Virus record (IMG/VR): IMGVR_UViG_3300033463_006479
Coordinates: 96,001 to 160,000 of that record
DNA length: 64,000 bases
Direction: 5' to 3' (one strand)
Origin: a virus
Taxonomy: Duplodnaviria; Caudoviricetes
A model generated the notes under the pieces. That model was not told the DNA's origin, searched no databases, and saw only the letters and a program-made list of their open reading frames with translations. This document shows, piece after piece, positions 28,860 through 36,205 of the stretch; the stretch's first letter is position 1, and every line of letters starts with the position of its first letter. Made by a program: the position numbers and the translations under genes.

Positions 28860-28957
28860 TGCAAGGAGGGTAAAAGAGTCGAACTTTTTAATAACCATTA
28901 TGAAAGGTTGCTGTAGTTTTCTATGATACAAGAAAAACAATCATAACCTCCGTTGCA
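28860..28957 (-). ncRNA. tRNA-like RNA carrying a permuted ACAGCAA module
   Basis: TTTTTCTTG..AGAAAAC TACAGCAA inserted 5' of a CAT loop; T loop GTTCGACT. Confidence 0.5.
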
Positions 28958-28965
28958 GACTATTG

Positions 28966-29038
28966 TCGGGTAGAAAGGACTCGAACCTTCGACCCCTTGG
29001 TCCCAAACCAAGTGCGCTACCAACTGCGCCACTACCCG
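28966..29038 (-). tRNA. tRNA-Pro(UGG)
   Basis: Loop TTTGGGA. Confidence 0.9.
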
Positions 29039-29047
29039 TAACACAAG

Positions 29048-29119
29048 AGCGGTGTATGAGAATCGAACTCACATCTCTGGCTTGGCAAGCCAGCGCACTA
29101 ACCGTTGTGCTAACACCGC
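29048..29119 (-). tRNA. tRNA-Gly(GCC)
   Basis: Loop TTGCCAA. Confidence 0.9.
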
Positions 29120-29136
29120 ATTTGAAGCCAATGGCA

Positions 29137-29421
29137 TTATCGTATAATTATGTCATTGATTTCTTCAAACGGAACGAAAACGTCATAGCCGTCATCGTCC
29201 TCAAAATGGTTAATTTCTTCTTTGAACCAAAATCCGAATTTGTATCTGTCATATACGAATGTTTCGCCATTCCATTCAGCCATATTAGCATTGCGGCAAA
29301 CACCGTTATATCTACGACCGACCTTCAATTCGGATTTCGGTATGGGTTTTATAGAATTAATGTCCTTTTTGTTTATGCCAGCATAAATTCTGGCTTTTCT
29401 GTCAAGTTCGTTTTTATCCAT
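29137..29421 (-). CDS. conserved phage hypothetical protein
   Basis: YNGVCRNA..AEWNG..FVY.RYKFG..HFEDDDGYDVFVP. Confidence 0.75.
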   Translation of the reverse strand: MDKNELDRKARIYAGINKKDINSIKPIPKSELKVGRRYNGVCRNANMAEWNGETFVYDRYKFGFWFKEEINHFEDDDGYDVFVPFEEINDIIIR

Positions 29422-29432
29422 TTGGATTGTTT

Positions 29433-30338
29433 TTAGTCACTGACATTCGGTTTGTTGCCGATTGCACCAGTGAATTTGTTAGTAAGTTCAAGAAGTTCAT
29501 TCTTATTCATATTGATAACACAGCATTTCATTTTGCTGTTCGGGTCAACCAGATATGCGCCAAGCCATCTGTGATGTCCGTCAAGAATGAAATTGTCTTT
29601 TGACACGATTGTGATGGGGCTTTTGTCATTTGGTTTAAGCAACCAGTCCATACCTTCTTTCGTGGGTTCTTCCTTGCCACCGAGAGGGATTGCCATATAG
29701 ATACTCTTTATGAAGAAAATCTGTTCTTGGATTGGTTTCAGTTTGCTGACTGGAATATCAACGACAGCACCACTGACTTGTTCCTTTTTATCTCCGTCAC
29801 CAGCTGTGAGCCATTTTTTACTCAATTCTTCGTCTTTGTCCAAATCAGCCTGCACCTTTTTTGCAAGTTCTTTATCCTCGCCGATAACATCAATGAAACC
29901 GTGTTGCAATAAGAACTTCAATGTAAGAACTTGGTTTGCCATAACCGTTTTTCTTTTGTTGTGGTCTTCAACACCACCATCTTCCAAAGCATCATCCATC
30001 ATTTCTGTTCTCGGTGCGCTTTCCTCATCTTCTTTTCCCTTACCAACACCTTTGAAGTTTGAATTGTTGATTACTGGCATTTCGCCACGTTTGTAAACAC
30101 CGAATTTGTCGGCAAATTTTTTTGCTGAATCATAATTGGCTTTAAAAGTTTCCTCATTATCGTATATTTCGGAAAACTTGTCATCAAGCATTTCTTTTGC
30201 AACCTCAACTGCTTTGTCAGCGTTTGTTTTGCGAAGTTCCAGTTTCGCATATTTTTTTCTCACCTCATTGGCTTTTGCGTAAGTATATTCTTCGTTGATG
30301 TGTCTACTTCTAAATTCGTTAAATTTCAATATCTTCAT
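29433..30338 (-). CDS. ParB/Srx-like domain protein, putative virion-internal
   Basis: ILDGHHRW motif; MKILKFNEFRSRHINE N-terminus; TATAAATA at 30359. Confidence 0.75.
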   Translation of the reverse strand: MKILKFNEFRSRHINEEYTYAKANEVRKKYAKLELRKTNADKAVEVAKEMLDDKFSEIYDNEETFKANYDSAKKFADKFGVYKRGEMPVINNSNFKGVGKGKEDEESAPRTEMMDDALEDGGVEDHNKRKTVMANQVLTLKFLLQHGFIDVIGEDKELAKKVQADLDKDEELSKKWLTAGDGDKKEQVSGAVVDIPVSKLKPIQEQIFFIKSIYMAIPLGGKEEPTKEGMDWLLKPNDKSPITIVSKDNFILDGHHRWLGAYLVDPNSKMKCCVINMNKNELLELTNKFTGAIGNKPNVSD

Positions 30339-30376
30339 AACAGTAATTTTTTATGATATATTTATACGACATAAAA

Positions 30377-31355
30377 TCACAATAAATCCACATCAACTTC
30401 TTTGTGCTCCAATATCAAATGCGGTTTATATCCAAGTCTTTCATACTCTAAAAACTTATCTTTCATATTTTGCAAGTTCAATGTCCAATTGGATTTTATT
30501 TCAAATATCTCATTAGTTGTCGGTATGAAAAAATCTGGTATGGCGCATTTATATTTGTTTGTCAATGTATCAAAATACTTAATTCGTAAACATTCTACGT
30601 CATAATCAATTTTTTGCAAATCTAATATTTTTGCAAAATCTAATTCATACGAAGACCTCAAATAAACACGTTTTGCCATTCCAAGTAGTATGCCAACAAT
30701 TTTTATAAGGGCACGAGTCTTTTTCTGATTTGACATTTATTTTACCAAGTATATATGCTTCAGATAAAGATTTGCTGTGATTTCTTGTTTGTATATCCAA
30801 TGATTTCAATATTTTATGAAAATTGGAAATACCAGAATTATATCCATATTTATCTGATAATGTTTTATCATCAATATGATTTGCATATTCTTGTTTTATC
30901 AAGCAAACAGTTTTATCATATTCATAAAAAATATCAGTTGTTCCAATTTTACTTTTATCAAAACCAAATATGGCTAATGTATTAAAAATCCTATATTTAT
31001 TGCAAATGTCTGGTCTTTCACAATGACCTTTTTCTGCGCCGCACCATTTACATTTTTTTATTTTCGTATTTTTTGATTTATTTGTGTGTAATGTGTTTAA
31101 TAATGTGGCCTTTTGTTTTTCCCTACTTTCTTTTGTTCTTATTTTATTGTTATATTTAGCAGCGCAATTTGTCGAACAAAATTTATTGCTCTTTTTATCA
31201 TAAGGTAATAACTTTCCACAACAACTACAACAATTTGGGTTTTTATAATAGTCGGATATGCGTTTATCTTTTTGTTCGTTTCTTGTTTTTAATGACGCTA
31301 AAAATCCAAGTTTTCCAGCTTCAGATTCACTTAATCCATTTCTTTGTTTTGGCAT
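30377..31355 (-). pseudogene. homing-endonuclease-like gene (Zn fingers plus TnsA-like PD-(D/E)XK), frameshifted near 30670
   Basis: CCSCC..FCSTNCAA, CKWCG; RSSYE..IPDF..EIKS in a second frame; TATAAATA at 31373. Confidence 0.7.
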
Positions 31356-31391
31356 ACAAATATATATTATATTATTTATATGTCAAATTTG

Positions 31392-31464
31392 AGCCAGTAG
31401 AGGGATTCGAACCCCCGATTTCATCGTTACAAAGGATGCTCCGTAACCACTTGGATATACTGGC
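31392..31464 (-). tRNA. tRNA-Thr(UGU)
   Basis: Loop TTTGTAA. Confidence 0.85.
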
Positions 31465-31668
31465 AACAAAGGTGATAGCAGATGTGTCTCGGATTCGCAC
31501 CTTTTACTGATTGTCTGTACACAACAATGCAGTTATCATTTAGCATTGTACGGCTTGCGCAAACCGAACAACGGCGATTTTATACCCGACCATACTCGTT
31601 GTCACTATCCGCATTACTGGGTGCGTTCCATCCACGGAACGGTGACCATTTCTTGCGTTTTAACCTTG

Positions 31669-31753
31669 TCGGACTGGGGGACTCGAACCCCCAACACGGA
31701 TTTTCCAGTTTTCTCTGGCGTGCTACCACGATACGCAGTTAACGTATAGTCCG
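31669..31753 (-). ncRNA. atypical tRNA-like RNA
   Basis: CGGACT/AGTCCG acceptor, GGGGGTTCGAGTCCCCC T arm, CCAG-AGAAAA-CTGG arm. Confidence 0.55.
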
Positions 31754-31763
31754 TTATGTTAGG

Positions 31764-34907: not shown

Positions 34908-34960
34908 ATTCAGATAAAGGACATTTGAATATTTTAACCAATAAACTATACAGCCTTGTT

Positions 34961-35063
34961 AGACCATAACACGGACTCGAACCGCTCGGTTGCTTTGTCG
35001 TGCACAACTCCGCAACCAATTTCTTCCAAACCACACGATATTTGCAACTATCACGTGTTGTCT
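34961..35063 (-). ncRNA. degenerate tRNA-like RNA
   Basis: T arm CGGTTCGAGTCCG with a non-canonical body. Confidence 0.35.
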
Positions 35064-35072
35064 TTATCTTGG

Positions 35073-35146
35073 TGGACACTGGTGGGACTTGAACCCACGA
35101 CATCCTGCTTGCAAGGCAGGCGTTCTTCCAACTGAACTACAGGCCC
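35073..35146 (-). tRNA. tRNA-Ala(UGC)
   Basis: Loop CTTGCAA. Confidence 0.85.
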
Positions 35147-35443
35147 AAAAGTGCAGCATACCGAAGTTTTTGCAATGTGCATCGGCCTCTATCGCTGCTG
35201 CGGCGAAAAAGCCTCTTTAGTTATTCGGTGAGGCTTGATTTCCGTTCACGCTCGTTTTGCTGCGGAAGTTTACTCGCATCGTGGAATTGTCACCACGCTC
35301 TCCCGCTTTGTGGCGGGAATGTCACTTGACACTTATACGCCTCAACTTTCCAATGCCGTCCGTTTTCGAAAATTATAATTTCGGTTTCGGCATATCAGCA
35401 CAAGTCAGCGATGCTTGAACACCAGTCTGCAAGCACTGTGTTG

Positions 35444-35515
35444 TTGTCCCGACCAGAATCGAACTGATATTACTTGTGCCAAAAACAAGTGTAATAGCCA
35501 TTATACCACAGGACA
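35444..35515 (-). tRNA. tRNA-Gln(UUG)
   Basis: Loop TTTTGGC. Confidence 0.85.
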
Positions 35516-35647
35516 TTACAAGCAACCGTTTTTATCTCTCGGATAGGTTGCTCACCTGCACCGCTTCCTTTTTTATGTTTCCGTGGCACTGCGGTTTTGA
35601 CACGGCGAAACGAGGTTTTACACAAAAATTGTTAAAGTCAAAGAAAA

Positions 35648-35710
35648 CAAGGTGCATATGGAAATAACAAATTTAGGTGTTGTTTGGAATAATGTTGCTG
35701 TACGCACCTT
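35648..35710 (-). ncRNA. stem-ACAGCAA element
   Basis: AAGGTGCG TACAGCAA ... TGCACCTTG. Confidence 0.6.
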
Positions 35711-35752
35711 TTGAACTATAAATTAACTATGAATGAAAAATGCCATAAAAAA

Positions 35753-35816
35753 CAAGACACACAAAAAAGATTCAAAGTGACAGTTTGATTTTTTTATGAA
35801 TTGCTGTATGTGTCTT
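35753..35816 (-). ncRNA. stem-ACAGCAA element with Asp(GUC) anticodon stem-loop
   Basis: AAGACAC ATACAGCAA .. TCAAA-CTGTCAC-TTTGA .. GTGTCTTG. Confidence 0.65.
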
Positions 35817-35818
35817 TG

Positions 35819-35920
35819 CGTATCTGGCAGGAGTCGAACCTGCGCCCTTGAGGATATGCCTCACGTTCTTACCGACATCTCCACGTTGGAATCCCACCAA
35901 CGCTTCACCACTACAGATAC
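35819..35920 (-). ncRNA. atypical tRNA-like RNA
   Basis: GTATCTG/CAGATAC acceptor, T arm, extra hairpin in the D region, 5-nt loop TGAGG-CATAT-CCTCA. Confidence 0.55.
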
Positions 35921-36000
35921 TGACAGAGGATAGGTTTGTTAAAACTATATGTGATTTGCAACTCAACATAAAGCTGTAACAATTAACATCATTCTGTTTG

Positions 36001-36074
36001 CGGTGTGTACGGGACTTAAACCCGTGACCTCCGCCGTGACAGGGCGGCATTCTAATCAACTGAACTAACACACC
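36001..36074 (-). tRNA. tRNA-Asp(GUC)
   Basis: Loop CTGTCAC. Confidence 0.85.
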
Positions 36075-36080
36075 ATTTTG

Positions 36081-36205
36081 TCGGGGGTGGTGGATTCGAA
36101 CCACCATAACGGCTACCCAAAAGCAAAATTGAAATAAAATTGCTGTCCAATTCTCATACAAGAATCGTCAAAAAAATACGTGTCCTACCATTAGACGAAC
36201 CCCCG
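36081..36205 (-). ncRNA. tRNA scaffold with ACAGCAA insertion replacing the anticodon arm
   Basis: CGGGGGT acceptor, D and T arms intact; ATTCTTG-TAT-GAGAAT TGGACAGCAA inside. Confidence 0.6.

Follow-up and report, generated by a model that had tools for sequence, protein, structure and literature searches.

Three loci resembling transfer RNA (tRNA) genes in a huge rumen phage, c1, c2 and c3, carry an internal RNA arm, here called the handle, which ties c2 and c3 firmly, and c1 more weakly, to a modular family of phage RNAs. They lie in a 64,000-nucleotide (nt) stretch, hereafter the window, that comprises bases 96001-160000 of the 192,463-base-pair (bp) IMG/VR virus record IMGVR_UViG_3300033463_006479 (working label G000; estimated completeness 70%) and whose proteins include a T4-type large terminase, two TnpB-like proteins and further phage genes. 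The handle consists of a covarying helix of 7 bp, whose 3′ strand is followed by a conserved G, and of a single-stranded ACAGCAA motif separated from the helix by 1-3 nt. In the account that we consider probable, c2, c3 and, with less confidence, c1 are stable non-coding RNAs in which this constant handle is joined to tRNA parts and docks a Ro60-like protein. They are best read as circularly permuted, YrlA-like Y RNAs with putative protein binding.

The three loci and their handles, in window coordinates, are as follows:

36081-36205, minus strand: c3, a 125-nt tRNA-like RNA gene with a 7-bp acceptor stem, D arm, T arm and handle arm and no anticodon loop
36140-36167, minus strand: handle of c3, with 3′ strand 36161-36167, loop 36155-36160, 5′ strand 36148-36154, a 1-nt gap and ACAGCAA at 36140-36146
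33988-34103, minus strand: c2, a 116-nt tRNA-like RNA gene with a 7-bp acceptor stem, D arm, T arm, 4-bp outer anticodon stem, handle arm and an inner stub with a 4-nt loop
34039-34066, minus strand: handle of c2, with 3′ strand 34060-34066, loop 34055-34059, 5′ strand 34048-34054, a 2-nt gap and TCAGCAG at 34039-34045
28864-28951, minus strand: c1, an 88-nt weak member with one mismatch in its acceptor helix, no D arm, a handle, a weak CAT-type loop and a T arm
28908-28938, minus strand: handle of c1, with 3′ strand 28931-28938 (one bulged T), loop 28923-28930, 5′ strand 28916-28922, a 1-nt gap and ACAGCAA at 28908-28914

All three are embedded in an array of 30 canonical tRNAs that ARAGORN places on the minus strand at ~21.9-38 kilobases (kb) of the window and that covers all 20 amino acids; standard ARAGORN calls none of c1, c2 and c3. 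The Rfam tRNA model (RF00005) gives c3 39 bits, reached only by skipping ~50 nt at its centre, and finds no match for c1 or c2. Folding confirms the description from which this analysis started, a sequence-only reading of the window: each locus has an acceptor helix, a T arm and a 7-bp hairpin (with one bulge in c1) that is followed, after 1-2 nt, by NCAGCA. The T loop of c2 and c3 is TTCGAxT, and the span 28860-28957 flagged for c1 is the extended terminal helix of 28864-28951. In each locus the RNA starts and ends in the tRNA acceptor stem, and a loop closes the handle at its far end. In c2 and c3, the handle interrupts the 5′ strand of the anticodon stem, and a short stub capped by a 4-nt loop remains; in c2, this stub has 3 bp and stacks on the 4-bp outer stem. 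The earlier statement that the insert replaces the anticodon arm in two of the loci is therefore too strong, as the arm is only partly replaced. In c1, the handle takes the position of the D arm, and the weak CAT-type loop comes after it.

The same module occurs, unpermuted, in six stand-alone units (S1-S6) of the same tRNA array, five at 35648-37590 and one at 22536-22606:

37511-37590, minus strand: S1, stand-alone handle RNA
37198-37271, minus strand: S2, stand-alone handle RNA whose payload has a Lys-type CTTTTAA loop
36215-36282, minus strand: S3, stand-alone handle RNA whose end lies 9 nt before the start of c3
35753-35816, minus strand: S4, stand-alone handle RNA whose payload has an Asp-type loop
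35648-35710, minus strand: S5, stand-alone handle RNA
22536-22606, minus strand: S6, stand-alone handle RNA

These units run from a 7-bp stem strand beginning AAG (GAG in S6) through 2 nt, ACAGCAA and a 40-57-nt payload to a complementary strand ending in CTT (CTC in S6) plus G, and their stems covary from copy to copy. In c1-c3, the order is the strand ending in CTT-G, a 3-8-nt loop, the AAG-type strand, a short gap and the motif, and the conserved G that follows the 3′ strand of the stand-alone units is the first loop base. Both groups share the 7-bp helix length, the AAG/CTT end and the 1-2-nt gap before ACAGCAA. Because the order of the parts is identical on a circle, what had been described as the same stem-plus-motif with its strands swapped is a true circular permutation, with helix length, AAG/CTT end, G and gap all in agreement: the inserts of c1-c3 are the family handle in permuted form. 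We also considered ACAGCAA as a promoter or inter-tRNA processing signal and rejected this, as the motif always stands beside a covarying helix and is strand-specific.

The pattern TCTTG-N1-8-AGAA-N2-5-CAGCA has exactly 3 matches in the window, namely c1-c3, against 0.03 expected, but it was written post hoc from c1-c3 themselves. We therefore place the weight on two independent checks, syntenic sites in a relative and a covariance model built from outside sequences.

First, the handle is kept in G001, a complete 413-kb phage reached through the YqeY-like open reading frame (ORF) beside c2, which is found at the same spot in G001 with 84% protein identity. Queries with an exact 18-mer of c3, the large terminase protein and the YqeY-like protein returned, besides G001, only distant fragments. 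The ORF itself (34304-34807, minus strand; 167 amino acids (aa)) adjoins c2 between tRNA-Phe and tRNA-Tyr and has a sub-threshold match to a YqeY/GatB-C-terminal-like domain, a tRNA-binding type of domain. The syntenic orthologs of c3 (L002:6341-6459) and c2 (L002:8708-8827) both have the handle and GCAGCAA, and the window-derived handle pattern also matches two syntenic sites in G001. Where the acceptor and T stems of c2 and c3 differ between the phages, the changes are compensatory, and the acceptor, D and T helices of both RNAs remain perfectly paired. The tiny stub of c3 is identical in the two phages, and the G001 copy of c2 still has a 7-nt anticodon-type loop, which a 4-nt deletion has removed from c2 of the window. 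The G001 copy syntenic to c1 is much diverged, with one core motif position changed. Conservation of the motif at orthologous loci, on which the sequence-only reading had staked its case, was thus found in G001 for c2 and c3 and only in part for c1. At L002:8843-8961, G001 further has a tRNA-Asp-like chimera that combines an intact GTC anticodon loop with a handle; the window has no counterpart of this RNA and instead has an odd 76-nt body (33884-33959) there.

Second, we built a covariance model, R2, only from 34 chimeras of other, unrelated phages. Its top two matches in the window are c2 (59.3 bits) and c3 (58 bits), both with E ~1e-10 and above every canonical tRNA, and it aligns the handle and motif of both in register with high posterior probability; c1 is a weak match (18.8-21.1 bits, with 18.8 bits equal to E 0.04). 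Genome-wide, R2 finds only c2 and c3 in G000, six chimeras in G001, with the tRNA-Asp-like one as the best match of the lineage (77.5 bits), and three in a 42.7-kb contig. At E<=1e-9, it collects 102 chimeras of 103-142 nt over 59 sources, all of them on the strand of the DUF2828 gene of their loci except the two in the window. In the alignment of these 102 sequences, the acceptor, D and T helices are >99% paired, 92.5% of the cells of the handle helix are paired and covariation is seen in all helices, with 7/7 pairs of the handle changing on both sides. The motif has the same C, G and C in 94/94 distinct sequences, and the final G of the c2 motif is the sole exception at its position among the 94. 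By these measures, c2 and c3 are solid members of a family of handle-tagged tRNA chimeras, and c1 is a weak, possibly decaying member.

The anatomy of this family bears on what the loci in the window are. Many members comprise a whole tRNA whose anticodon loop is intact (Asn, Lys, Thr and Asp types), with the handle branching off the 5′ strand of the anticodon stem; in others, the handle lies within a closed 5-bp anticodon stem and there is no anticodon loop. The earlier opposition of stand-alone elements with an anticodon and no body to chimeras with a body and no anticodon does not survive these observations, because c1 keeps an anticodon-like loop, many members are whole tRNAs plus a handle, and the G001 copy of c2 retains its 7-nt loop. 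The anticodon-less c2 and c3 look like a derived state in a family with modular payloads, not like one half of a designed pair.

Outside the two related phages, the stand-alone and permuted handles are strongly enriched on the coding strand beside DUF2828 genes. We examined 80 viral DUF2828 loci, fetched with the protein alignment (at least 491 relatives exist), and 80 loci from species-representative genome assemblies, mostly gut and rumen metagenome-assembled genomes, with reversed sequences as controls. In the viral loci, 251 stand-alone handles lie on the gene strand and 31 on the opposite strand (controls, 35 and 15); at least one match, counting both strands, is present in 76 of the 80 loci, and 127 stand-alone handles end <=500 nt upstream of the DUF2828 gene. 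A handle ends <160 nt upstream of the gene in 59 of 81 loci. Permuted handles follow the same bias, with 113 on the gene strand against 25 opposite (controls, 21 and 17) and, where a T-loop motif downstream is required, 90 against 2. The assembly loci repeat the pattern for stand-alone handles (136 against 26; controls, 14 and 11) and for permuted handles with a T loop (74 against 3; controls, 0). The proposal that stand-alone and chimeric elements are complementary members of one ribonucleoprotein (RNP) system is partly supported, in that one module, in both forms, stands beside one protein family in these 160 loci; the notion of complementary halves is too neat.

No second partner gene is shared: DUF2828 aside, no gene is present in >36 of the 160 loci, apart from an opposite-strand ORF family (75 loci) that we set aside as an antisense artefact of the DUF2828 gene, judging from the coordinates of one example. 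The neighbours that do recur are limited to lineages and comprise an SPFH/Band 7 protein (36 loci), a class-V aminotransferase of the cysteine-desulfurase type (28) and a weak RNA-ligase-like ORF (18).

G001 has a single DUF2828 gene (L007:946-2466), a 506-aa ORF with DUF2828, DUF7788 and a weak vWA match. An AlphaFold model of this protein, made from a 54-sequence alignment, has a predicted local distance difference test (pLDDT) score of 91.3 and a predicted template modelling (pTM) score of 0.90. When the model was used in a fold search of the PDB, 13 matches were counted at E <= 0.001, and every one of the 12 listed was a Ro60/TROVE structure, aligned over the whole DUF2828 protein at E between 3e-10 and 1e-5; isolated vWA domains came next. 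The predicted fold of the DUF2828/DUF7788 protein is thus Ro60-like, and the Pfam TROVE model (PF05731) has no match in G000 or G001, in a search whose control does find TROVE in Bacteroides thetaiotaomicron. The leader of the gene itself carries a mini stand-alone handle with a 16-17-nt payload, which ends 22-24 nt before the DUF2828 start codon and is conserved in G001 (L009:5938-5978) and a second contig, G005 (L010:5939-5980). This mini-handle is a candidate autoregulatory operator and would fit autoregulation by an RNA-binding protein. Another loop-closed, handle-like hairpin followed by ACAGCAG lies in G001 outside any tRNA body (L017; G001:196817-196840) and is preceded by a promoter-like A/T-rich box resembling one before the DUF2828 leader. 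Some 13-15 kb downstream of the DUF2828 gene, both G001 (224829-226812) and G005 (33373-35988) have a second cluster of at least three handle-bearing tRNA bodies. In G001, an ORF for a CCA-adding-type nucleotidyltransferase follows this cluster, at 234.9 kb.

Because the handle marks a widespread family of phage RNAs found beside the gene for a Ro60-like protein, the inserts in c1-c3 are most likely permanent docking arms, not introns. In the mechanism that we propose, RNase P and 3′ tRNA-processing enzymes would cut the RNAs from the polycistronic tRNA transcript, and CCA would be added. The RNAs would then stay unspliced and, with no anticodon loop left, could not decode. Their handle arm would dock the phage Ro60-like ring protein (DUF2828/DUF7788 plus a vWA domain), and the particle would present the elbow and acceptor end of a tRNA, much like a YrlA-type Y RNA on Ro60. 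Such a particle would probably be used in the host-phage conflict over tRNAs, engaging or drawing away an enzyme that reads the shape of a tRNA.

The reading that the inserts are introns, with the handle directing excision and ligation to give ordinary tRNAs, draws on their place in the anticodon region and on the intron mode of ARAGORN, which can force tRNA-Leu and tRNA-Arg models; moreover, excision from the many members elsewhere that keep an intact anticodon loop would yield a normal tRNA. For the loci in the window, it is very improbable, since removing the insert leaves no anticodon loop: whatever stretch is taken out of c2 or c3, neither a 7-nt loop nor a 5-bp stem plus loop is restored, and the ARAGORN models have poor stems and place the intron at non-canonical positions (31/32 and 32/33). 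There is also no Rfam group I signal within the three loci, RtcB ligase was not found in G000 or G001, the canonical tRNAs of the array already serve all 20 amino acids and the same module forms free-standing genes in which it interrupts nothing. That the loci are decaying tRNA pseudogenes, struck by a small mobile or recombining handle cassette and giving a functionless RNA, would account for c1, which has no D arm, an acceptor mismatch and only 18.8-21 bits, and for the anticodon-stub deletion and atypical last motif base of c2; further aberrant tRNA-like bodies in the array point the same way. We nevertheless judge this unlikely by a wide measure, given the perfect acceptor, D and T helices of c2 and c3 with their compensatory changes relative to G001, the recurrence of the architecture in 102 sequences with the pairing and covariation given above and its strand-locked association with DUF2828 genes.

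A functional handle with a partner other than DUF2828 is the strongest of these rivals, although we still hold it to be unlikely. The handle might bind a host protein (host Rsr, or an RRM-type protein like Dictyostelium Rnp1A), or act as an RNA-only processing or stability signal. Record G000 has no DUF2828 gene, Bacteroides carries Rsr, the control search finds TROVE in B. thetaiotaomicron, and the Dictyostelium Class I RNAs, the sole handle-like RNAs with biochemistry, are reported to bind Rnp1A directly (PMC7919456). What speaks for DUF2828 instead is that handles are enriched around its genes by position and strand in two collections, that a mini-handle stands in the leader of the DUF2828 gene itself and that no further neighbour gene is common to >36 of the 160 loci.

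Several observations weigh against our own account of c1-c3 as handle RNAs of a Ro60-like protein. Neither a DUF2828 nor a TROVE gene was found in the 192-kb, 70%-complete record G000, and in G001 the DUF2828 gene lies ~190 kb from this tRNA array. In that phage, the array is at 8.6-25 kb and DUF2828 at 211 kb, and the array in G000 is flanked by 118 kb and 58 kb, so that, by synteny with G001, the DUF2828 gene of the window phage would lie outside the record. The ACAGCAA motif is unlike GNCGAAN0-1G, the motif of the helix through which known Y RNAs bind Ro60 (PMC4201824). The counts of pairing, covariation and motif conservation were made on an alignment fitted to R2. Finally, c2 has a unique G at the last motif position and, relative to G001, a 4-nt deletion in its anticodon stub, and the syntenic copy of c1 in G001 has a changed motif; some copies may therefore be decaying.

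Around these loci, the array holds other unusual elements. About a dozen extra tRNA-like bodies that standard ARAGORN misses, c1-c3 among them, emerge from a scan for a T arm with a matching acceptor stem. Six of them are handle-free (36314-36513, 35819-35920, 33884-33959, 31668-31754, 25494-25639 and 22277-22528, all on the minus strand); they measure 76-252 nt and have good T arms and acceptor stems and enlarged or aberrant centres, and no Rfam family explains their inserts. A 69-nt tRNA-like gene at 28724-28792 (minus strand), also missed by ARAGORN, has perfect acceptor, D and T arms, an anticodon stem closed by a 4-nt loop and a score of 52.9 bits with the Rfam tRNA model, and so is an anticodon-less tRNA body without a handle. 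Between c1 and this next tRNA-like gene (28812-28855, minus strand), ACAGCAGG and its downstream complement form a perfect 8-bp hairpin in which, unlike in the handle, the motif itself is paired. We considered 28421-28510 (minus strand; hairpin plus CCGCAA) as a fourth chimera and rejected it: it is the counterpart of the tRNA-Ser(UGA) of G001, a second, damaged tRNA-Ser(UGA) copy with 4 extra nt in the anticodon stem, and its hairpin is superficially handle-like. An HNH endonuclease ORF also lies within the array (36648-37058, minus strand). A guide-RNA role of c1-c3 for TnpB was considered with regard to the two tnpB genes in the window; nothing ties those genes to the loci.

Among known RNAs, phage T4 stable RNAs species 1 and 2 (rnaC and rnaD) are oversized tRNA-like RNAs encoded in the T4 tRNA cluster and processed with the tRNAs. 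They are like c1-c3 in being oversized tRNA-like RNAs among phage tRNA genes, and we know of no handle motif or partner protein that they have in common with them. Intron-bearing tRNA genes (with bacterial group I introns in the anticodon loop or archaeal bulge-helix-bulge introns at non-canonical sites) likewise carry an insert of tens of nucleotides in the anticodon arm, but c1-c3 lack a group I core and have their insert elsewhere than at 37/38, its removal restores no anticodon loop and the module also occurs outside tRNAs.

By analogy, the functionally closest known system appears to be that of the YrlA-type Y RNAs of bacteria and mycobacteriophages (RF02553), in which a tRNA-like domain is joined to a helix that docks Ro60/Rsr (Chen et al. 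2014, PMC4201824). The YrlA RNA of M. smegmatis is cut by RNase P and receives CCA (PMC4201824). The likeness lies in a docking helix that takes the place of the anticodon arm on a tRNA-like domain with an acceptor-like helix, a D arm and a T arm, in a candidate partner, DUF2828, with a predicted Ro60-like fold, and in the end topology of M. smegmatis YrlA, which is that of c2 and c3. Formal membership fails, as the RF02553 model has no match at E<=10 over 28300-36400, nor at E<=1 over 20000-40000. YrlA ends in the protein-binding helix, whereas c1-c3 end in the acceptor stem and are in this sense permuted. The docking motif of YrlA, GNCGAAN0-1G, is not present in c1-c3, which have a helix plus ACAGCAA in its stead. 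The YrlA partner is a TROVE protein, whereas DUF2828/DUF7788 is missed by Pfam TROVE and is similar at the level of the fold only. The phage handle family is, in addition, multi-copy with modular payloads.

Dictyostelium Class I RNAs (Aspegren 2004) offer a second comparison, made here for architecture and motif only: their terminal stem, with the motif directly after its 5′ strand, is shared by the stand-alone units S1-S6. Class I RNAs combine a short covarying terminal stem, a single-stranded motif ending in ACAGCAA, a variable body and a 3′ stem strand with a G-containing end (PMC5054030, PMC7919456), and are reported to be restricted to dictyostelids (Kjellin 2021, PMC7919456; search pattern in PMC5054030). 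They differ from c1-c3, in which the stem is internal and closed by a loop. They are also eukaryotic, their known direct binder is an RRM protein, and neither tRNA parts nor permuted forms have been described for them. In the literature searched, we found no paper on the function of DUF2828 or on the handle-tagged phage RNA family.

These comparisons suggest a wider reading, which we regard as possible rather than probable. The DUF2828/DUF7788 proteins may be a second branch of Ro60-type ring proteins, divergent in sequence, for which the handle serves as docking site, and phages may fuse the handle, in either permutation, to whole tRNAs, anticodon-less bodies or bare anticodon arms, as a Y-RNA-like tool-kit for conflict over tRNAs; the Class I RNAs would then belong to this RNP class as its eukaryotic representatives.

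Ro60 and its Y RNAs have long been puzzling, and no purpose is known for the tRNA-like domain that bacterial Y RNAs carry. If our interpretation is right, phages hold such particles in large number and variety and in a form that is easy to recognise; their tRNA part is swapped, trimmed or permuted while the handle stays constant, and this set would provide a natural series of variants for asking what tRNA mimicry is for. It would also propose a function for DUF2828/DUF7788, a group of thousands of proteins without functional literature, and the same idea would become directly testable for the Dictyostelium Class I RNAs. For annotation, it would mean that oversized tRNA-like genes in phage tRNA arrays should not by default be taken for intron-containing tRNAs or pseudogenes.

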